Shown here piece by piece: positions 8,722 through 35,917 of a stretch of 42,602 nucleotides of DNA (its first letter is position 1; each line of letters opens with the position of its first letter). The DNA is from Dehalococcoidia bacterium. Lineage in GTDB: Bacteria; Chloroflexota; Dehalococcoidia; GIF9; AB-539-J10. The notes under the pieces were generated by a model. The model was given only the letters and a program-made list of their open reading frames with translations, had not been told where the DNA came from and searched no databases. A program made the translations under genes and the position numbers. The stretch covers positions 1-42,602 of the forward strand of contig WJOY01000013.1 in NCBI GenBank assembly GCA_009619075.1, in the 5' to 3' direction.

Positions 8722-9393
8722 TTGAAGTTGTCGCTAATTGCCATAGATGGCCCGGTAGCAGTAGGCAAGAGCAGTGTGGGCTCATTACTAGCTAAAAAAC
8801 TTGATTATGTTTTCTTTGATACTGGCCTTATGTATCGCGCCTTTACCTGGAAAGCACTTAAATTTGGCATTCCTCCCACCAATGAAAAAGAGCTTTCTCA
8901 ACTAGCTGGTATAACTAAATTTGATTTCGTTTCACACCAAGAAGGATATCTCTTCCCTCTTATTGATGGTGAAGATGTTTCTGCTGAGCTACTTTGCCCC
9001 GAGATAGAGGAGCAAGTTTCCTTGATATCGAAGGTAGCCGGGGTGCGCCAGATGATGGTATCAGAACAGCAGGTGGTAGCCCGGCGAGGGAAAGTGATAA
9101 TGGCAGGCAGAGACATTGGCACGGTGGTTTTACCTTGGGCGGAACTAAAGATTTTCTTGGTTGCTTCTGTCAAAGAGAGAGCTAATCGCAGGTATAAGGA
9201 ATTGCTGGAGCGAGGAGAGAAGGTAGATTACGATGCTACCCTTGCTGACCTCAAGAGACGAGATGGCATTGATACCCACCGCACTATTTCACCACTTAAG
9301 CCTGCTGCCAATGCTATAATCATTGATACAGAAAAACTTAGCCTAAAGCAAGTTGTGGATAAAATATATAATTTGGCGGCCAAACTTAGCTAG
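8722..9393 (+). CDS. cmk: Cytidylate kinase
   Basis: IAIDGPVAVGKSS P-loop, DTGLMYRA, GRDIGTVVLP, RRDGID..R.ISPL. Confidence 0.95.
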   Translation: MKLSLIAIDGPVAVGKSSVGSLLAKKLDYVFFDTGLMYRAFTWKALKFGIPPTNEKELSQLAGITKFDFVSHQEGYLFPLIDGEDVSAELLCPEIEEQVSLISKVAGVRQMMVSEQQVVARRGKVIMAGRDIGTVVLPWAELKIFLVASVKERANRRYKELLERGEKVDYDATLADLKRRDGIDTHRTISPLKPAANAIIIDTEKLSLKQVVDKIYNLAAKLS

Positions 9394-9438: not shown

Positions 9439-9486
9439 GTAGTGCGAGGCTTTAGCCTCGTGCACGACCCTAAAGGGTCGCACTAC
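9439..9486. repeat. REPIN-like doublet of two inverted GTAG-type REP hairpins
   Basis: GTAG-TGCGAGGC-TTTA-GCCTCGTG followed by CACGACCC-TAAA-GGGTCGCA-CTAC. Confidence 0.8.
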
Positions 9487-9592: not shown

Positions 9593-10234
9593 ATGACTCT
9601 ATCTCAAAGGATTGTCTTAGCCATACTCAAACTACTCTCCAGGATTTTCCTTTCCTGGAAAGTCAAGGGGAGGGAGAATATGCCCTTAAATGGCCCGCTC
9701 ATCGTGGTAGCCAATCATGTTCACCTTGTTGATGGCATATTGCTGCAGCTTAGCTTCCCCAGGTGGATTAATTTTATGGCTAAACAGGAGCTTTTTCGCT
9801 ATCCTTTCTTAAGAATCATCTTCCGGTGGGCACAAGCCTTTTCCGTGCCTCGTCGAGGGACAATTAGGGATAAGCGAGAGGCAGTTAAGCAAGCCAAAGA
9901 GATACTAAACAAGGGGCTAGTTCTGGGTATGTTCCCCGAGGGTAAGAGAAACCGCGATGGCAAGCTTTTACCTGGTAAATCAGGTTCGGCTGTAATTGCT
10001 TCACAAACGGGTGTTGCTTTGCTTCCTATTGGCATTATTGGCACAGAGAAGCTTAAAGGGATAAGCTGGCTATGGAAGCGTCCTAGCATAGTCATCAATA
10101 TTGGCCAGCCTTTTGAGCTTCCTTCAAGTGATGGCCGGTTAACCAAATCGCAAACTAAAATGTCCACTGACTTAATGATGAACAAAATCGCTGCCCTTCT
10201 GCCCCTGGAAAACCGAGGATGGTATGGAAATTGA
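9593..10234 (+). CDS. plsC: 1-acyl-sn-glycerol-3-phosphate acyltransferase
   Basis: NHVHLVD (HX4D), FMAKQELF, MFPEGKR. Confidence 0.9.
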   Translation: MTLSQRIVLAILKLLSRIFLSWKVKGRENMPLNGPLIVVANHVHLVDGILLQLSFPRWINFMAKQELFRYPFLRIIFRWAQAFSVPRRGTIRDKREAVKQAKEILNKGLVLGMFPEGKRNRDGKLLPGKSGSAVIASQTGVALLPIGIIGTEKLKGISWLWKRPSIVINIGQPFELPSSDGRLTKSQTKMSTDLMMNKIAALLPLENRGWYGN

Positions 10235-11102
10235 GAAAGCTCGAGAACTTGGCTTATGCTTTGGCGTGAGACGAGCCATCAAACTGTTAAAGGAAGCGGC
10301 AAGCAAATACGGCAATATAGAGACCCTGGGACCAGTAGCGCATAATCAGCAGTTGCTGCAAGCATTGACCAAAGTAGGGATAAAACCGATAGACAACCTA
10401 GAACAGGTTCAAGGCAAAATCCTGGCGGTAACCACCCACGGGGTAAGCCCGCAAGTACTATCTCAAATCGAAGCCCGCCATATCAAATTAGTTGATACTA
10501 CTTGCCCTATAGTTCTCCAGGCTCAAAATGCCACCAAGGAGTTAGCCGATAGTGGCTTTGATGTTATCATCTTCGGGGAGGCAGAGCACCCCGAGGTTAA
10601 AGGATTGCTGGGTTGGGCGGGAAATAAAGGTATCGCTGCTCTTGAGGTAAAACAATTATTAGCTGCTAACAAAACGACGCCATATCGCCTAGGCATCATC
10701 TCTCAAACCACTCAAAGCCACTCTGCCTTCATCGAGTTCATAATACAGCTTATAGCTGCCCTTCCTTCTGTCATTGCGAGCGAAGCGAAGCAATCTCTTA
10801 AGGAAATACGCATCATTAATACCTTATGTCAAGTAATTCAAAAACGCCAGGAAGAGGCTATAAGATTGGCGCAAAAAAACCAGCTTATGATAGTGATCGG
10901 GGGACATGACAGTGCCAATACTAAACGTCTGGCTGAAGCATGCTCACCCCTAGTGGAAACTCATCTGGTGGAAGGAGCAAGTGAGGTGAACCGCTCCTGG
11001 CTTGCAGGTAAACACCATATTGGCATCGTTGCTGGGACATCCACTCCAGATGAGGCTATAGAGGAAGTGGTAGCTAAACTGAAGGCCCTACCGGGGGTTT
11101 AG
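10224..11102 (+). CDS. ispH: 4-hydroxy-3-methylbut-2-enyl diphosphate reductase
   Basis: GLCFGVRRA, THGV, DTTCP, HPEV, SQTT, NTLC, SANT, AGTSTP; three cluster cysteines present. Confidence 0.95.
   Translation: MEIEKARELGLCFGVRRAIKLLKEAASKYGNIETLGPVAHNQQLLQALTKVGIKPIDNLEQVQGKILAVTTHGVSPQVLSQIEARHIKLVDTTCPIVLQAQNATKELADSGFDVIIFGEAEHPEVKGLLGWAGNKGIAALEVKQLLAANKTTPYRLGIISQTTQSHSAFIEFIIQLIAALPSVIASEAKQSLKEIRIINTLCQVIQKRQEEAIRLAQKNQLMIVIGGHDSANTKRLAEACSPLVETHLVEGASEVNRSWLAGKHHIGIVAGTSTPDEAIEEVVAKLKALPGV
10769..10797 (+). repeat. GTCA/GNA hairpin repeat in frame within ispH (VIASEAKQS)
   Basis: TGTCATTGCGAGCGAAGCGAAGCAATCTC; GTC at 10770 is in the ispH frame. Confidence 0.88.
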
Positions 11103-11104
11103 TT

Positions 11105-11165
11105 ATCACCCTAAGCGATTAGGAAGGGTCTCACAGATTCTTCGGCCTACGGCCTCAGAATGACA
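11105..11165. repeat. Inverted pair of GTCA/GNA hairpin repeats between convergent ispH and HIT genes
   Basis: ATCACCCTAAGCGATTAGGAAGGGTCTC followed by AGATTCTTCGGCCTACGGCCTCAGAATGACA. Confidence 0.8.
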
Positions 11166-11180
11166 CACAGCAAAAAATTT

Positions 11181-11528
11181 TTAGCCTAGCTGATCACTCA
11201 GCTTCCTGCCACCAATGAGGTGGAAGTGAAGATGAGGCACCACCTGTCCCCCTTCAGGACCACAATTTATCGCCAAACGATAGCCGCTCTCCGCTATCCC
11301 CTCTTTCTCAGCTAGGTTCCTGGCTAATATTATCAGGCGTCCTATAAGCCCCTGTTGTTGCTCAGTAAGCTCTGTTAAAGATGCGATGTGAGTTTTGGGT
11401 ATGATGATTACATGCTTAGGCGCCTGAGGGTTGATATCCCTGAAAGCTAGGAATTCCTTATCTTGGTAAACAATATCACCGGGTATCTCACCAGCAACAA
11501 TGCGGCAAAAAAGACATCCTTCAGCCAT
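11181..11528 (-). CDS. Histidine triad nucleotide-binding protein (HinT/PKCI-like)
   Basis: CLFCRI, AFRDINPQAPKH, GQVVPHLHFHLIGGR. Confidence 0.95.
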   Translation of the reverse strand: MAEGCLFCRIVAGEIPGDIVYQDKEFLAFRDINPQAPKHVIIIPKTHIASLTELTEQQQGLIGRLIILARNLAEKEGIAESGYRLAINCGPEGGQVVPHLHFHLIGGRKLSDQLG

Positions 11529-11550
11529 GCTTATTTTCTATTAACTTTAT

Positions 11551-11790
11551 CTAGGACAGGCCCATTGAAAGGCAAGTTATCGTTCTGCTAATGCCTGGGA
11601 TGGGATGAATCTTCCCGGTAACCAGATTTCCGATGCCCTCAAGGTCCTGAGCCTCGACTGCGGCAATGATGTCGTAAGGTCCAGTTACAGCATCAGCCGA
11701 TTTTACCCCCTCCACCTTGCCCAGAGCAGTAACGACGTTCTTGGTTTTCCCGACTCCGATCTCGATAAGTACAAAAGCTTTGACTGCCAT
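11551..11790 (-). CDS. Stand-alone Lrp/AsnC ligand-binding (RAM) domain protein
   Basis: KAFVLI, VTGPYDIIA, IPGISRTITC; no HTH. Start ATG 11790 with RBS AGGAGGTG. Confidence 0.85.
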   Translation of the reverse strand: MAVKAFVLIEIGVGKTKNVVTALGKVEGVKSADAVTGPYDIIAAVEAQDLEGIGNLVTGKIHPIPGISRTITCLSMGLS

Positions 11791-11883
11791 ACTCCACCTC
11801 CTTATCAAATTTTAACCCGATATGTCTTTTAGTGCAACCGAAAGATTCTTCCATGATTTCGCTTGCTTCAAATTATTATATAC

Positions 11884-11909
11884 TTTGACTATAATTTTTG
11901 ACTATAATT
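11884..11909 (+). repeat. Exact 13-bp tandem duplication in the divergent lrp/miaB promoter region
   Basis: TTTGACTATAATT x2; each unit contains TTGACT and TATAAT. Confidence 0.85.
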
Positions 11910-11942
11910 GTAGAAAGCTTGCGGGTTAGAGAGCGTTTATTT

Positions 11943-12078
11943 TGTCACCCTGAGCCGAAGCCCTGAGCGCAGAGAAGGGAATAGCGAAGGGTCTAGATTC
12001 TTCGCGGAGCCTGTCCTGAGCGGTGTGAGATTCTTTGCTATGCTCAGAATGACGAGGGGCGAAGGGCTCAGAATGACA
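11943..12078. repeat. Nested cluster of GTCA/GNA hairpin repeats upstream of miaB
   Basis: Forward unit 11943-11994 contains an inner CCCTGAGCGCAGAGAAGGG. Reverse unit 11995-12078 encloses CCTGAGCG...GCGAAGG, which encloses GAGATTCTTTGCTATGCTCAGAATGAC (12027-12053). Confidence 0.85.
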
Positions 12079-12112
12079 GGAGGAGGTTGCTAAATAGCCT
12101 CTGGGCTAAATT

Positions 12113-13408
12113 ATGTCAAAGTATTTTATCTGGACCATCGGCTGCCAGATGAATAAGGCAGAATCGCTGCGGATAGCTAGCTATCTAGATTTCCTCAGCT
12201 ATCAAGTTGCACCCTCCCTCCGGGAAGCTGACTTAGTAGTGCTCAATACCTGTGTCGTGAGGCAGAGTGCCGAGGATAAAGTTTTGGGCACGTTGGGTTT
12301 GTTGAAAGGGCTAAAAAAGGAGCACCCGAATCTCTCTATACTGGTTACTGGCTGTTTTGTTGATTCCAACATCGCAGGATTGAAGAGAAGATTTCCCCAG
12401 GTTGATTTTTTCTTCAAGCCAGGAGCTTACCCCGAGCTAACTAACTGGGCTCAAAAGCAGGGCATTTCTACCGCTGAGCAAGGATTGCTTCGCTACGCTC
12501 GCAATGACACATGGAAGTCTCCTTCTCCTTGCGCCTTTGTCCCCGTCATCCAGGGTTGCAATAAATTTTGTTCTTACTGTATCGTCCCATACAGGAGAGG
12601 TAGAGAGGTAAGTCGTCCTTTAGAAGAAGTAGTTTGTGAAGTCAAAGGGCTGGTGAAGCAAGGAGTAAGGGAGGTAATTTTGCTGGGGCAGAATGTCGAT
12701 TCTTATGGCCACGATTTGCCTGGCAATCCCGATTTGGCTGATTTGTTAACCAAATTAAATAACATTAACGACTTAGCTAGAATTCGCTTTTTGACTAACC
12801 ATCCTAGAGATATAAGCCAAAGTCTCATTGAAGCTATGGCTTTCCTGGACAAAGTTTGCGAACATTTAGAGCTACCTATTCAGTCAGGCGATGATGATAT
12901 ACTGAAGGCTATGAGGCGAGGGTATACTGTGGAGCAATATCGTAAGCTTATCCACGCTATTCGATATCATATCCCTCAAATATCTTTGAGCACTGACATT
13001 ATCGTTGGCTTTCCCGGGGAAACTGAGGAGCAATTTGAGCATACTTATTCTTTGCTAGAAGAAATGCGGTTTGATGTTGTTCACGTGGCCGCTTATTCTC
13101 CTCGCCCTGGCACCATCGCCGGGAGAAAATATGAAGATACTGTTCCCCCAGAAGTTAAGAGGGAAAGATTTAATAAAATTGAACAACTCCAGGCAAATAT
13201 AGCTACTGAACTAAACTCCGCTTACCGAGGCAAGACAATGGAGGTATTAGTGGAAGGTGAGAGGAAAGGAAAGTGGTATGGACGCACCAGAAGTGATAAG
13301 CTAGTATTCTTTGAAAACAAGGATGATTGCACAGGGCAACTGGTGAAAATCAGGATTGAGAAAACAAGCCCTTGGGCACTGCAGGGCAAGGTTGGATATA
13401 ATAGCTAA
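12113..13408 (+). CDS. miaB: tRNA-2-methylthio-N6-dimethylallyladenosine synthase
   Basis: TIGCQMN, LNTCVVR, VTGC, radical SAM CNKFCSYC, TDIIVGFPGET, YSPRPGT, C-terminal TRAM domain. Confidence 0.93.
   Translation: MSKYFIWTIGCQMNKAESLRIASYLDFLSYQVAPSLREADLVVLNTCVVRQSAEDKVLGTLGLLKGLKKEHPNLSILVTGCFVDSNIAGLKRRFPQVDFFFKPGAYPELTNWAQKQGISTAEQGLLRYARNDTWKSPSPCAFVPVIQGCNKFCSYCIVPYRRGREVSRPLEEVVCEVKGLVKQGVREVILLGQNVDSYGHDLPGNPDLADLLTKLNNINDLARIRFLTNHPRDISQSLIEAMAFLDKVCEHLELPIQSGDDDILKAMRRGYTVEQYRKLIHAIRYHIPQISLSTDIIVGFPGETEEQFEHTYSLLEEMRFDVVHVAAYSPRPGTIAGRKYEDTVPPEVKRERFNKIEQLQANIATELNSAYRGKTMEVLVEGERKGKWYGRTRSDKLVFFENKDDCTGQLVKIRIEKTSPWALQGKVGYNS
12482..12509 (-). repeat. GTCA/GNA hairpin repeat in frame within miaB, reverse orientation (GLLRYARNDT)
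   Basis: GGATTGCTTCGCTACGCTCGCAATGACA is the reverse complement of the ispH copy with 2 mismatches in 28. Confidence 0.9.
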
Positions 13409-13426
13409 TTAAAAAGGAGGAATGCA

Positions 13427-13705
13427 ATGGAACAACTTCAAGGCATAGCCCCAATTCTCTTTCTGGTATTGATCTTCGCCGCGATGTATTTCTTTATGAT
13501 TAAACCACAGCGCAAGAGACAGAAAGAACAGCAAGAACTAGTGCAGGAACTGAGAAGGGGAGATAAGGTGGTTACCACTGGCGGAATCTATGGACAAATT
13601 GAAAACCTCAGCCAGGATACTGTAGTTCTGCGGATAGAATCAGGGGCAACAATTAAGGTAGCTAGAATCAGCATAGCCGGCAAACAAGGTAAACAGATAA
13701 GATAG
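13427..13705 (+). CDS. yajC: Preprotein translocase subunit YajC
   Basis: TM helix, YFFMIKPQRKRQKE, GDKVVTTGGIYG. Confidence 0.95.
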   Translation: MEQLQGIAPILFLVLIFAAMYFFMIKPQRKRQKEQQELVQELRRGDKVVTTGGIYGQIENLSQDTVVLRIESGATIKVARISIAGKQGKQIR

Positions 13706-13716
13706 AGAGAGATAAT

Positions 13717-13780
13717 TAGCTCACAGCAGACAGCAGTCAGCAATTAGCTGATAACTGAAGGCTGAAAGCTGATAGCTGAA
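13717..13780. repeat. Inverted array of degenerate heptamers
   Basis: TAGCTCA CAGCAGA CAGCAGT CAGCAAT then TAGCTGA TAACTGA AGGCTGA AAGCTGA TAGCTGA; CAGC cores face GCTG cores. Confidence 0.75.
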
Positions 13781-13782
13781 AG

Positions 13783-14691
13783 GTGAATCCCAAACAAGCT
13801 AAAGAAAGGATAGCTAAGCTAAAAAGGGAGCTTAACGCTATTATCGTAGCTCATAATTACCAGCGCCCCGAAGTGCAGGATATCGCTGACTTTACCGGTG
13901 ATTCTCTTGAGCTAGCGCAGAGATGTGTTGGCGCCGATGCGGAGATAATCGTCTTGTGCGGCGTTCGCTTTATGGCTGAGACAGCAGCTATTCTTAATCC
14001 AGCTTCTACAGTGCTCTTATCTCATCCTGATGCTGGCTGTCCTTTAGCAGACATGATCAATGTTGGGGAGCTAAAGCAATGGAAAGAGAGATACCCCAAA
14101 GCTACTGTGGTGGCTTATGTTAACACTACGGCGGCAATTAAGGCGGAAAGCAATATCTGTTGCACCTCGGCTAACGGGATTGAGGTGGTGACCTCCTGCC
14201 TGGCTAAGGAAATCCTCTTTATCCCTGATCAAAACCTAGGACATTATATTTCCACCAAGACCAACAAAAGAATGATTCTCTATCCCGGCTTCTGTGATAC
14301 TCATGCTAAGGTTACTGCTGAGCAAGTTAGCTTAGCCAAGCAGAGGTATCCCCAGGCCAAAGTTTTGGTTCATCCTGAATGCCGTCCAGAGGTTATAAAT
14401 TTGGCTGATGCTGCTTTAAGCACCTCACAAATGCTTCGCTATGCTAAGTCTTGCAATGAGAAAACTTTCCTCATCGGCACGGAGGAGGGAACATTACATC
14501 CCTTAAGGAAGCAAAATCCGGAAAAGGAATTTTATCTTATCAGCGATGGCTTTATCTGCCCTGATATGAAGAAAACAACTTTAGAAACGGTTATTGAAGC
14601 TATGCAGACAAAAAGCAACGTGGTCATCGTGCCCGAGGAAACAAGAATAAAAGCCAAGCAAGCTATTGATAGGATGCTGGCCATAACCTGA
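13783..14691 (+). CDS. nadA: Quinolinate synthase
   Basis: AHNYQ, GDSLEL, CGVRFMAE, AGCPLA, YVNT, CTSAN, PDQNLG, HPEC, CPDMK. Confidence 0.96.
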   Translation: MNPKQAKERIAKLKRELNAIIVAHNYQRPEVQDIADFTGDSLELAQRCVGADAEIIVLCGVRFMAETAAILNPASTVLLSHPDAGCPLADMINVGELKQWKERYPKATVVAYVNTTAAIKAESNICCTSANGIEVVTSCLAKEILFIPDQNLGHYISTKTNKRMILYPGFCDTHAKVTAEQVSLAKQRYPQAKVLVHPECRPEVINLADAALSTSQMLRYAKSCNEKTFLIGTEEGTLHPLRKQNPEKEFYLISDGFICPDMKKTTLETVIEAMQTKSNVVIVPEETRIKAKQAIDRMLAIT

Positions 14692-14700
14692 AAGGAAAGA

Positions 14701-14740
14701 TCCCCTCTCCCTTCACGGGAGAGGGGAAGGGTGAGGGTGG
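14701..14740. repeat. CCCCTCTCCC/GGGAGAGGGG-type REP hairpin with GGGTGAGGG tail
   Basis: TCCCCTCTCCC-TTCAC-GGGAGAGGGGA (11-bp stem) followed by AGGGTGAGGGTGG. Confidence 0.75.
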
Positions 14741-14783
14741 AAAAAATGTTTAAAAAAATCGTAGCACCAAGGTTTTAGCCTCG

Positions 14784-15686
14784 ATGGAAGAGATTATTGA
14801 CCGTGCTTTAGCTGAAGACCTCGGCAAAGGCGATGTCACTACTGAAGCCTTAATACCAAATGACCAGCAAGGGAGTGCCTCCATTATAGCAAAGGAACAA
14901 GGCATTTTGGCTGGCATCGAAGTAGCTAAGAAGGTATTTCCCAAAGTAGATCCAGGGCTAAGAATGGACGTTTTGCTTGAAGATGGATTCAGGATTAAGG
15001 CGAGTGATGTAATCGCCAGGGTAGAAGGCAAAGTAGCTAATATTCTAAAAGCAGAGAGGGTGGCTTTAAATTTCCTGCAGAGGCTGAGCGGGATTGCCAC
15101 GGAAACAAATCGCTATGTGGAAGCAGTCGAGGGATTGCCAGTGCAAATTATGGATACCAGAAAGACAACCCCTAGCTTAAGGTCGCTGGAGAAATATGCT
15201 GTCAGGGTTGGTGGCGGTGAAAATCACCGTATGAATCTGGGCGATGGCATACTTATTAAAGATAATCATCTGGCAGCTCTTCGTAGCCGTGGATTAAGCC
15301 TCAAGGAAATTATAGCCAAGGCTCGGCAAAATGCGCCTTTGTCATTGCGAGGCATCCCAAGCCGAAGCAATGTCGAAGCAAGGCAAATTCAAATCGAAGT
15401 GGAGGTCAAGACTGTGCCAGAAGCTCTGGACGCTGCTGAGGCTGGGGCAGATGTCGTTATGCTGGACAATATGAGTCTTGGAGATATGCGTCAGGCAGTT
15501 AAGATGATAGGTGGTCGTGCCTTAATTGAAGCCTCTGGAGGAATTACCCTCGATAGAGTTCGTGCTGTGGCTGAAACTGGCGTTGATTTTATCTCAATTG
15601 GCGCCCTTACCCACTCAGTCAAGGCTTTGGATATTAGCCTGGAGCTTGAGCCATCTTCTTCTCTGGGGCAAGGCCATGGGCCCTAA
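14784..15686 (+). CDS. nadC: Nicotinate-nucleotide pyrophosphorylase (carboxylating)
   Basis: ALAEDLG.GDVTT, ERVALNFLQRLSGIAT, DTRKTTP, LIKDNH, MLDNM, EASGG, SIGALTHS. Confidence 0.95.
   Translation: MEEIIDRALAEDLGKGDVTTEALIPNDQQGSASIIAKEQGILAGIEVAKKVFPKVDPGLRMDVLLEDGFRIKASDVIARVEGKVANILKAERVALNFLQRLSGIATETNRYVEAVEGLPVQIMDTRKTTPSLRSLEKYAVRVGGGENHRMNLGDGILIKDNHLAALRSRGLSLKEIIAKARQNAPLSLRGIPSRSNVEARQIQIEVEVKTVPEALDAAEAGADVVMLDNMSLGDMRQAVKMIGGRALIEASGGITLDRVRAVAETGVDFISIGALTHSVKALDISLELEPSSSLGQGHGP
15340..15374 (+). repeat. GTCA hairpin repeat in frame within nadC (LSLRGIPSRSNV)
   Basis: TGTCATTGCGAGGCATCCCAAGCCGAAGCAATGTC between KARQNAP and IQIEVEV; read in a different frame from the ispH copy. 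Confidence 0.8.
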
Positions 15687-18118: not shown

Positions 18119-18183
18119 TGTCACCCTGAGCGAAGCGAAGGGCCTCCGAGATTCTTCGGTCGTTACGCTCCCTCAGAATGACA
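18119..18183. repeat. Inverted pair of GTCA/GNA hairpin repeats; supplies the stop codon of the upstream methyltransferase
   Basis: TGTCACCCTGAGCGAAGCGAAGGGCCTCC + GAGATTCTTCGGTCGTTACGCTCCCTCAGAATGACA; TCA at 18173-18175. Confidence 0.88.
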
Positions 18184-22802: not shown

Positions 22803-24173
22803 ATGAAGACGGAGTTTATGGCTGCTATTGCTCAACTCTCAGCTGAGAGGAACTTACCTAAAGAAGTGATCTTGGCAGCTTTGGAATCAGCGCTTGTCTC
22901 AGCTTATAAAAAAGACATTTTTACCCGCGAGCAGGATATTTCAGCCAAAATTGATCCCAATACTGGTGATATCAAGGTTTATATTAGAAAAGTTGTGGTT
23001 GAGTCATTTATCGACCCGCATCAAGAGATCTCCTTGGATGATGCTCGAAAAGTGCGGGATAGTATTCAAGTTGGCGAAATAGTGGAAGTGGAATCTACAC
23101 CCAGAGATGCTGGGCGTATTGCTGCTCAAACGGCAAGGCAGGTTGTTTTGCAGCGGTTGCGCGAAGCAGAGCATCGGGTAATCTACGAGCAGTTCGCCGG
23201 TAAGGAAGGCGAGATTGTCAGTGGGACGATTCAATTCATCCAGCCTAAACAAATTTATGTTACCTTGGGCAAGGGAGAGGCTATACTGCCCTTTAGTGAG
23301 CAAGTGCCTAATGAGCGTTACCACGTAGGACAGCAATTTAAATTCTATCTTTTGGAGATAAGTCAAAGCGTTAAAGGGCTTCAAATAATAATTTCTCGCT
23401 CTCATCCGAATTTGCTACGCCGCCTTTTTGAACTAGAAATTCCCGAAATTCACAGTGGCGTTGTAGAACTGAAAGCAATAGCACGCGAAGCCGGACATCG
23501 AAGCAAAGTAGCAGTGTCAACTCACCAAGAAGGCATCGAACCTGTAGGTTGTTGCCTTGGACCTCGAGGCGTCAGGCTACAAAGTATTATTAACGAGCTA
23601 AATGGTGAAAAAATAGACATGATTCAATGGCACGCCGACCCTAAAATATTTATCTCCAATGCCCTCAGTCCAGCCAAAGTGGCAAGTACTGAGCTCAACG
23701 AGGCAGAAAAGACCGCCACTGTAGTCGTTCCTGATAGGCAACTATCCCTAGCCATCGGTAAGGAGGGACAAAATGCCAGGTTAGCAGCAAGACTCTCAGG
23801 TTGGCGAATTGACATTAAGAGCGCCTCTACCGCTGAAGCAGAAAGGATAAGCTTACCGGAGGCTGCTCCTCAAGAGTTAGAAACGATAGCTGGAGAGGGT
23901 GAATTTCCTTTCACCGTGCCAAGCGAACCTCAGGCGGCGGAGCCGGTTAGCGGAGGGGAAGTAAAAGAACTAACCACGCTCTTAGCCAGTGAAGAATTTA
24001 TATTAGCCTCGAAAGCTCCTTCTAAGAGGCCTGAAGAAAAACCGCAACTCCGCTTCGCTGAGGATATTTTACCAAGCAGGGGGAAAAGCATAAAGTTGGA
24101 GAAGGACAAGGTTAAGAGCAAAGGACATAGAAAAAAGAAAGCTCACTTTAAAGAGGATGAACCGGAAGAATAA
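22803..24173 (+). CDS. nusA: Transcription termination/antitermination factor NusA
   Basis: [12 protein letters not shown]1 and KH domains, [37 protein letters not shown]; long acidic/basic tail. Confidence 0.97.
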
Positions 24174-35801: not shown

Positions 35802-35917
35802 ATCATTCTGCGCGCAAGCGAAGAATCTCAAGACCCTTCGCGGAGTTTACCCTGAGCGAGATTCTTCGGTCGCTTCGCTCCCTCAGAATGACAGGAAGCG
35901 AAGGGCTCAGGGTGACA
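35802..35917. repeat. Three-level nested cluster of GTCA/GNA hairpin repeats between dapB and asd
   Basis: Unit 35802-35829; outer AGACCCTTCGC...GCTCAGGGTGACA (35831-35917); middle CCCTGAGCG^AAGCGAAGGG; inner unit 35858-35893. Confidence 0.88.

Follow-up and report, generated by a model that had tools for sequence, protein, structure and literature searches.

REPINs, small hairpin-forming repeats mobilised by REP-associated tyrosine transposases, are frequently arranged as inverted doublets. The palindromic elements of Rickettsia (Rickettsia palindromic elements, RPEs; Ogata et al. 2000, 2002, as summarised in the portions of PMC10969869 cited here) are selfish repeats that lie in frame within unrelated housekeeping genes of a small genome, and as first reported they are approximately 150 bp long, encode a conserved peptide of tens of residues; they are translated as additional segments, thought to be placed where the protein fold tolerates them. 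Closest to the subject of this study is the CGTC/TGTC-tagged superfamily of repetitive extragenic palindromes (REPs), comprising CGTC-1 to CGTC-4 (Di Nocera, De Gregorio & Rocco 2013, BMC Genomics 14:522, PMC3733652). In the sections of that paper cited here, the superfamily is defined by a CGTC or TGTC/CCTC tag, a stem of 8–9 bp which opens with A-T residues and a loop of 4–5 nt, loops of other lengths being noted for CGTC-1 of Bradyrhizobium; its members also carry a 3-nt tail, mostly CCA, occur mostly as inverted (HH) dimers, have no dedicated transposase and include intragenic units in genes of known proteins. The same sections describe families of CGTC repeats from Bradyrhizobium as well as from species of Sphingomonas/Sphingobium, equate Rickettsia RPE-6 with CGTC-1 and RPE-4 with CGTC-4, and list CGTC repeats for Proteobacteria, Chlorobi, Bacteroidetes, Spirochaetes and Thermotogae, Chloroflexi not being among the phyla named. 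The current study concerns a TGTC-tagged hairpin repeat in the DNA of an uncultured Dehalococcoidia bacterium (GCA_009619075.1, contig WJOY01000013.1, positions 1–42,602 of the forward strand; these 42,602 nt in their entirety are referred to below as the window), copies of which lie in frame within ispH, miaB and nadC.

An initial annotation of the window had proposed that a single palindromic element is read in three different frames within these three housekeeping enzymes, and our analysis confirmed this arrangement. The 26-mer GTCATTGCGAGCGAAGCGAAGCAATC is present exactly at 10770–10795 (+) in ispH and, as its reverse complement with one mismatch, at 12483–12508 in miaB; matches were found in none of the 100 dinucleotide-preserving shuffles from which the chance expectation for window repeats was derived (0/100, mean 0.00). 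The looser pattern CATTGCGAG-N(4-30)-GAAGCAAT produced three matches in the window against 0.00 expected, the third being a longer-loop variant of the repeat at 15343–15371 in nadC. The ispH and miaB copies share 91% identity over 35 nt, so that the similarity extends a few bases past the core on the tag side. Translation of the repeat yields VIASEAKQS in ispH, GLLRYARNDT in miaB (from the element’s opposite strand) and LSLRGIPSRSNV in nadC. All three host genes are intact, as had been claimed, and each exceeds a curated NCBIfam cut-off (Table 1). We assign a probability of about 0.82 to the interpretation that each of these in-gene sequences is a copy of a non-autonomous hairpin repeat belonging to the CGTC/TGTC-tagged REP class, translated as tolerated, near-neutral loop passengers.

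The repeat belongs to a large family in the window’s own genome (G000; 936 kb, 47 contigs, 68% complete). Scanning for the pattern GTCA-N4-GA, inner part, GA(A)-complement of N4-T identified 130 strict hairpins in these 0.94 Mb, compared with 2.8 in shuffles, and the stems fall into the classes TTCT (74), TTGC (40) and CCCT (14). In each unit a TGTC tag is followed, in order, by an outer stem of 5 bp, an internal loop rich in GA, a small inner hairpin (GC-GAA-GC) and a CTC tail (present in 77/130); the base preceding GTCA is T in 116 of the 130, giving the TGTC tag, and C in 11. The outer stem is ATTGC/GCAAT in the gene copies of the window, with ATTCT/AGAAT and ACCCT/AGGGT occurring at other sites of the genome; the inner part reads GAG-CGAAGC-GAAG, either as such or in a lengthened form, and many units are nested in the loops of others, with unit lengths spanning 24–92 nt (modes at 24–25 and 32 nt). 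Outside the three host genes the 26-mer has 27 further genomic copies, intergenic positions included. When the pairing of 5′ arms with cognate 3′ arms was compared to that with the two non-cognate arms, the counts were 40 versus 8 and 0 for TTGC, 74 versus 13 and 2 for TTCT, and 14 versus 0 and 2 for CCCT; the arms thus pair with their own partners, i.e. they co-vary, which supports the hairpin as the conserved feature. The intergenic copies in the window are organised as inverted doublets or nested arrays (Table 1), and the doublet directly downstream of ispH provides the final three codons and the stop of that gene.

For the nadC copy, RNA folding predicts a clearly stable structure (−13.5 kcal/mol, z −3.2); of the intergenic doublets, that at 18119–18183 is likewise clearly structured and that at 11104–11167 less so (Table 1). 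To describe the ispH and miaB copies as palindromic stretches the term, for they consist of a 5-bp outer stem and a 2-bp inner stem and fold no better than their shuffles (ispH −5.2 kcal/mol, z +0.67; miaB −3.6 kcal/mol, z +0.38). Predicted stability was consequently dropped as support for the ispH and miaB copies, and the label ‘hairpin repeat’ is founded on the family-wide covariation of the arms, not on folding energy.

Table 1. Host genes, in-gene hairpin repeats and intergenic hairpin repeats of the window
Feature	Position	Strand	Details
ispH (4-hydroxy-3-methylbut-2-enyl diphosphate reductase), 292 aa, intact	10224..11102	+	TIGR00216 222.9 bits vs cut-off 187.85; Pfam LYTB residues 3-287
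TGTC-tagged TTGC hairpin in ispH	10769..10797	+	exact 26-mer; net insertion 24 nt (10770-10793) = V183-Q190 (VIASEAKQ)
Intergenic inverted doublet, degenerate CCCT-type + TTCT hairpin, directly 3′ of ispH stop	11104..11167	.	RNA fold z -1.8
Nested (‘Russian doll’) CCCT + TTCT array upstream of miaB	11940..12085	.	hairpins 11944-11992 (+), 11997-12053 (-), 11997-12077 (-)
miaB (tRNA methylthiotransferase), 431 aa, intact	12113..13408	+	TIGR01574 423.8 bits vs cut-off 355.3; Pfam UPF0004 3-101, Radical_SAM 144-315, TRAM 370-427
TTGC hairpin in miaB inter-domain linker	12482..12509	- (opposite to gene)	1 mismatch to 26-mer; read as G124-T133 (GLLRYARNDT)
nadC (quinolinate phosphoribosyltransferase), 300 aa, intact	14784..15686	+	TIGR00078 319.2 bits vs cut-off 198.4; Pfam QRPTase_N 17-102, QRPTase_C 104-287
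42-nt nadC insertion, L186-A199 (LSLRGIPSRSNVEA)	15339..15380	+	holds TTGC hairpin 15341-15371 with 13-nt inner part
Intergenic inverted doublet, CCCT-type + TTCT, TGTCA tags at outer ends	18119..18183	.	RNA -25.3 kcal/mol, z -3.0
Nested array, TTCT hairpin within CCCT hairpin	35828..35917	.	35833-35916 (-) contains 35861-35892 (-)

The distribution of the 26-mer in other bacteria connects it to the published class. In a search of a species-level genome collection the exact 26-mer matched at least 120 stretches from many phyla, the hosts among the matches listed including Bradyrhizobium, Sphingomonadales, Deltaproteobacteria, Planctomycetota, Chloroflexota, Bacteroidota, Calothrix, Legionellales, Coxiellaceae, Rickettsiales and Omnitrophota. 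The matches listed hold 137 copies, in which the preceding base is C in 95, which creates a CGTC tag, and T in 38, and the last C of the core together with a following CA forms a CCA tail in 88. As the 26-mer is accompanied by the CGTC tag and CCA tail in Bradyrhizobium, Sphingomonadales and others, the TTGC unit can be placed in the CGTC/TGTC class. The finding that 37 of these 137 copies lie in long open frames was not used as a count of coding copies, since GC-rich genomes give spurious long frames and no Pfam check was applied.

Concerning the insertion of these copies into their host genes, we compared G000 with 40 related genomes (41 in total, the relatives being metagenome-assembled genomes of Dehalococcoidia), aligning for each of IspH, MiaB and NadC the 30 best loci (the window’s own row and 29 relatives); G000–G004 are members of the window’s genus (g1), while G013 and G018 represent other genera. 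Structure models were built with AlphaFold2 from these 30-sequence alignments. In IspH, eight residues are inserted between ..AALPS and SLKEIRIINTLC in 4/30 rows (G000, G002, G003 and G004), all of the window’s genus, and are absent from 24/30 rows, all from other genera; unrelated inserts occur at the same point in two genomes (G016, locus L046; G017, locus L054), and Cys12, Cys94 and Cys202 are invariant in the 30 orthologues. The IspH model has a mean predicted local distance difference test score (pLDDT) of 92, residues 181–190 forming its only internal block of low confidence (pLDDT 60), and in this model the insert lies between helix 166–185 and strand 194–198, the latter leading to the invariant Cys202. 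The solved Aquifex structure (3DNF) displays a 12-residue gap at this site, and orthologues free of the insert already possess CTTCCT at the insertion site.

The NadC insert of 14 residues, located before the IEVEV strand, is present in 5/30 rows, namely G000, G003 and one genome each of three other genera, and absent in 25/30. It is missing from G001, G002 and G004 of the same genus, in which the flanking DNA is nearly identical to that of G000, and its absence from three genomes of the same genus points to recent turnover. In the NadC model (mean pLDDT 87.9) residues 190–200 score below 50 just before strand 204–208, and in the Thermus thermophilus structure 1X1O the gap at the insert site measures exactly 14 residues.

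In MiaB the copy is situated between the UPF0004 (3–101) and Radical_SAM (144–315) domains. A hairpin-derived linker occurs in 7/30 rows (L001–L006 and L012), five of which come from the window’s genus, one from G018, where the arms have decayed, and one from G013, where they are intact; three further rows (L011, L013 and L014) have other inserts in this linker. The net gain relative to the nearest insert-free orthologues is approximately 5 residues only, the linker is variable in length, and as that of the solved Bacteroides uniformis MiaB is longer, no gap is visible at this site in a solved structure. The miaB copy of G002 itself houses a second, CCCT-type hairpin, which lengthens the gene by 27 nt and preserves the frame. 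Judged from the alignments, the IspH loop and the MiaB linker are recurrent landing places, with unrelated inserts of 8–20 residues in other genera. At positions 13706–13790 of the window, between yajC and nadA, a low-complexity repeat of GCTGA-like units (..gctgataactgaaggctgaaagctgatagctgaaagg..) is found; a similar sequence is translated in the MiaB linker of G009 (L014, LSADSFQTRASARKD).

It had been suggested that the three sites are loops or linkers, and the predicted structures bear this out for IspH and NadC, as does the position of the MiaB copy between Pfam domains. The expectation of clean insertions relative to orthologues held for IspH (8 aa) and NadC (14 aa) and failed for MiaB, in which the variable linker offers no clean insert against distant homologues. 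Had orthologues from genomes lacking the repeat family possessed similar segments of equal length, the insertion claim would have been untenable; the insert-free rows (24 for IspH, 25 for NadC) argue otherwise. These rows also bear on the notion that the segments are ancestral and were lost by most relatives, their likeness to the repeat being coincidental or secondary. The variability of the MiaB linker, the longer linker of B. uniformis MiaB and the occurrence of the MiaB and NadC segments in more than one genus would be in keeping with such a history, but among the rows lacking the IspH and NadC segments is every row from the order’s other families, the solved Aquifex IspH and Thermus NadC are likewise without the segment, and the segment DNA is identical or near-identical to the 27 further genomic copies of the 26-mer; we therefore consider ancestral segments extremely improbable.

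Genome-wide, 36/130 hairpins are located in genes, defined here as lying within a long open reading frame (ORF) with at least 40 codons on either side, and these occupy 28 long ORFs; each of the 25 hairpin-bearing ORFs outside the window (25/25) has Pfam domains. Among the hosts outside the window are PheT, chorismate synthase, AroK-AroB, PurC, HisG, an aconitase-family protein, CobU, Mfd (three hairpins), SecA, a second MiaB-like enzyme (two hairpins), PolA, PGI, adenine deaminase, MnmA, HypD, dihydroorotase, CarA, PyrK, IleS and RuvX. Hairpins lie in confirmed genes in 28% of cases (45% by a crude ORF-based gene set) compared with a crude coding density of 87%, a depletion consistent with selection purging most genic insertions. 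Three hosts are longer than the stretch of Pfam profile that they match, namely chorismate synthase by 78 (G000:C12:8597-9922, L214), PurC by 55 (G000:C16:25333-26400, L217) and CobU by 29 (G000:C18:17250-17879, L222). The extra spans together with nested hairpins in AroC and PurC suggest that a single enzyme can be enlarged by tens of residues through successive insertions.

The observation that coding copies are all of the TTGC variant is correct for the window (3/3), but across the genome TTGC is merely enriched, accounting for 18 of the 36 in-gene hairpins, the others being TTCT (16), CCCT (1) and TCCT (1). Expressed as a share of each class, the genic fraction is 18/40 for TTGC, 16/74 for TTCT and 1/14 for CCCT. 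Of the six frames, five are open in the TTGC variant and four in the CTGAG variants: a TGA interrupts one forward frame of GTCATTCTGAG and of GTCACCCTGAG but none of GTCATTGCGAG, and all variants have a TGA in one reverse frame, which derives from the tag. The enrichment of TTGC in genes is thus partly due to stops in the other variants. Coding copies use forward frames 0/1/2 in 10/10/7 cases and reverse frames 2/1 in 8/1, and the third reverse frame, the one with the TGA of the tag, is used by 0/36.

This pattern is informative as to whether the inserts are removed by excision at the RNA level or by ribosomal bypass, such that the enzymes would be made without the extra residues. Hairpins in coding regions could in principle favour bypass. 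Against this stand the lengths of the inserts, 24–42 nt and always frame-keeping, and the complete avoidance of the stop-containing frame; both are as predicted by selection on a translated sequence and would be needless if the inserts were removed. Furthermore, a search of the whole window with Rfam at gathering thresholds, intron families included, returned no match. Removal of the inserts is accordingly very improbable indeed.

Purifying selection still acts on the host genes, as seen when codon positions 1/2/3 are compared separately: identity amounts to 95.7/94.6/87.1% for NadC (G000 versus G003) and 85.3/92.2/68.6% for MiaB (G000 versus G018). The peptide ALPSVIASEAKQSLK provides an example of what would be predicted across an insert junction if the inserts are translated.

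Several findings weigh against the interpretation of the inserts as translated, near-neutral copies of a CGTC/TGTC-class repeat. Translation is itself suggested by two lines of sequence evidence, the intact frames and the conserved host genes. As regards class, the stem of the repeat has five continuous base pairs, a GA/GAA internal loop and an inner stem of 2–4 bp, such that the published 8–9 bp are reached only by counting the interrupted helix; the loop is a 3-nt GAA (GNA), 7 nt or whole nested hairpins; the tail is CTC (77/130) where CCA is published; and no stable hairpin is predicted for the two short copies. Filled and empty nadC alleles differ by the 42-nt insert and additionally by the next 13 nt (RQIQ versus KRLK), which implies that a single cut-and-paste event is insufficient. 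Quick maximum likelihood trees built from insert-free columns need, on the best tree, four changes for nadC and three for miaB, of which well-supported branches force only one, and one origin versus several is thus not separated for these inserts. Finally, the NadC hairpin insert is 90–95% identical (38–40/42 nt) among three genera, where third codon positions are 48–56% identical, and the MiaB core is identical at 25/26 positions between two genera (G000 and G013) despite saturated synonymous sites, all eight third positions of the LLRY.RND codons being in agreement.

This conservation between genera, together with the exact recurrence of the 26-mer across many phyla, speaks for the in-gene hairpins being functional nucleic-acid elements under selection at the DNA or mRNA level (a binding site, or an mRNA-stability or pausing signal), the peptide being a by-product. 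Nevertheless, the arms have decayed in three lineages (G002 ispH, G001 miaB and G018 miaB) in which the host gene is intact, and the nadC insert is dispensable in three genomes of the same genus; both observations argue that any constraint on the hairpin sequence is weak. The short copies are moreover no more stable than shuffles, the comparisons indicating conservation are few and were picked after the data had been seen, and allele transfer or conversion from the 37–84 other TTGC-type copies per genome could produce the same pattern. Selection on the nucleotide sequence, short-patch allele transfer and conversion from other copies would each explain the conservation of the hairpins between genera, and we regard a nucleic-acid function of the in-gene copies as quite unlikely.

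Regarding turnover, TTGC-type copy number varies from 0 to 84 across the 41 genomes, with at least one copy in 31/41, and a reversed-pattern control gave 0 matches. The 92-nt stretch 11090–11181, which contains the doublet downstream of ispH, is absent from G002, where the site is empty; G004 has it, and in G003 another sequence, of 578 nt, stands in its place. The proposal that the repeat is an active source of new segments gains some support from this absence of the ispH doublet in G002, from the presence and absence of the nadC insert and from the nested miaB hairpin of G002. Target-site duplications and exact ends could not be defined, as the nearest empty ispH site is 73% identical in protein and the 13 nt downstream of the nadC insert differ. 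The 14 nt 5′ of the hairpins are pyrimidine-rich, TTCC being present within 10 nt at 22/129 hairpins (9/36 of the coding ones) compared with 3.4% at unrelated GTCA sites; this hints at preferred target sites, or else the element itself may reach into this sequence.

A link to a transposase was sought through PF01797 (Y1), other transposase families not being searched; this family was found in 7/41 genomes compared to TTGC hairpins in 31/41, and was not found in G009 (84 hairpins) or G013 (71 hairpins), both of which are 98–99% complete. G000 encodes a single REP-associated tyrosine transposase (RAYT; NF047646, 101.2 bits versus a cut-off of 80; G000:C42:4724-5044, corresponding to L236 1426-1893, minus strand), which is flanked on both sides by the GTAG-preceded hairpins GGCGGGGTTTATCCCCGCC and GGTCGGGGACAAGCCCCGACC and not by TGTC hairpins. 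The RAYT was ruled out as the mobilising enzyme of the TGTC hairpins on the basis of these flanking repeats and of the co-occurrence data, and a Y1/RAYT route for the mobility of TGTC hairpins in this order is unlikely.

Employing these data, the following scheme may be proposed. The repeat would spread through the genome without a link to a Y1/RAYT transposase, most copies settling between genes as inverted doublets or nested arrays. A copy entering a gene would persist only if it adds a multiple of three bases, offers a stop-free frame and falls in a surface loop or inter-domain linker, and the survivors would be translated as 8–14 extra, mostly hydrophilic residues (VIASEAKQ, LLRYARND, LSLRG..RSN) which the enzyme tolerates. 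We infer that such inserts are near-neutral passengers rather than adaptive modules, and that copies are gained, exchanged or lost among close relatives, some decaying by point mutation. As to the mode of movement, it is conceivable that the TGTC hairpins mark a transposase-independent, hairpin-targeted process of copying or short-patch conversion which rewrites a sequence recognised by a conserved host factor in many phyla. This reading is put forward because the in-gene hairpin sequence is near-constant between genera with saturated synonymous sites, because the filled nadC allele with its changed 13-nt flank occurs beside empty alleles and in three other genera, the altered flank being common to those carrying the insert, and because new units land in old loops and after pyrimidine-rich, CTTCC-like sequence; it is speculative and we consider it unlikely.

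Further repeats were observed in the window and its genome. The GTAG REPs and the RAYT constitute a second, separate REP system in G000. At 9439–9486, upstream of an acyltransferase-like ORF, there is a 48-nt palindrome beginning with GTAG and consisting of two overlapping 29-nt arms that are 86% complementary, which from its sequence resembles a doublet of GTAG-type REPs. The core CCTCTCCC..GGGAGAGG marks a third hairpin family, present at 14688–14713, 23271–23296 and 23892–23913, and a perfect 18-nt palindrome related to it adjoins the RAYT (L236 2041-2070). A direct repeat of 139 nt, 91% identical between its copies, is located at 2–140 and 8769–8907, 8.8 kb apart.

Translated selfish hairpin repeats represent a cheap supply of new loops in essential enzymes and, by the same token, confound annotation and alignment. 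In this instance the process would run at high density in a streamlined free-living lineage, involving at least 28 domain-bearing genes in a 0.94-Mb genome that is 68% complete. The filled and empty alleles of close relatives are natural with/without pairs of IspH, MiaB and NadC. The full-text literature searched yielded no paper on in-frame palindromic repeats in the Dehalococcoid lineage, nor on a 22-nt piece of the element (subscription journals not covered). The initial annotation had known of no description for the inferred lineage; the phenomenon as such is not undescribed, given that intragenic CGTC/TGTC REPs were published in 2013, in a superfamily which includes RPE-4 and RPE-6, as the cited sections of PMC3733652 make clear.

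Comparison with the described systems places the repeat as follows. With GTAG REPs and the REPIN-RAYT system it shares short hairpin units that often form inverted doublets, but its tag is TGTC and not GTAG, and no cognate RAYT flanked by the same REPs accompanies it. In common with the RPEs of Rickettsia it is inserted in frame in many unrelated housekeeping genes (28 here); it differs from the RPE-1 type, of approximately 100–150 bp, in that its units are shorter (24–60 nt, or up to 92 nt in the genome-wide scan) and add just 8–20 residues, and its host is a free-living, sediment/groundwater-type Dehalococcoidia member whereas that of the RPEs is an obligate intracellular alphaproteobacterium. 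With regard to the CGTC/TGTC superfamily, the hairpins described here differ in being nested in each other’s loops. In the TTGC and TTCT classes (114/130) the stem opens with an A-T pair followed by T-A, in CCCT with A-T followed by C-G. Shared with the superfamily are an unpaired TGTC/CGTC tag at one end, copies in genes of known proteins, a patchy distribution among relatives and the lack of an associated transposase, as far as the Y1/RAYT search goes; the tail is short, and the window’s intergenic copies are inverted doublets or nested arrays. The host phylum, Chloroflexota, lies outside the five phyla listed in the cited sections of PMC3733652, so that, as far as those sections extend, only the lineage is new for the class, and the CGTC/TGTC REPs are hereby extended to Chloroflexota.

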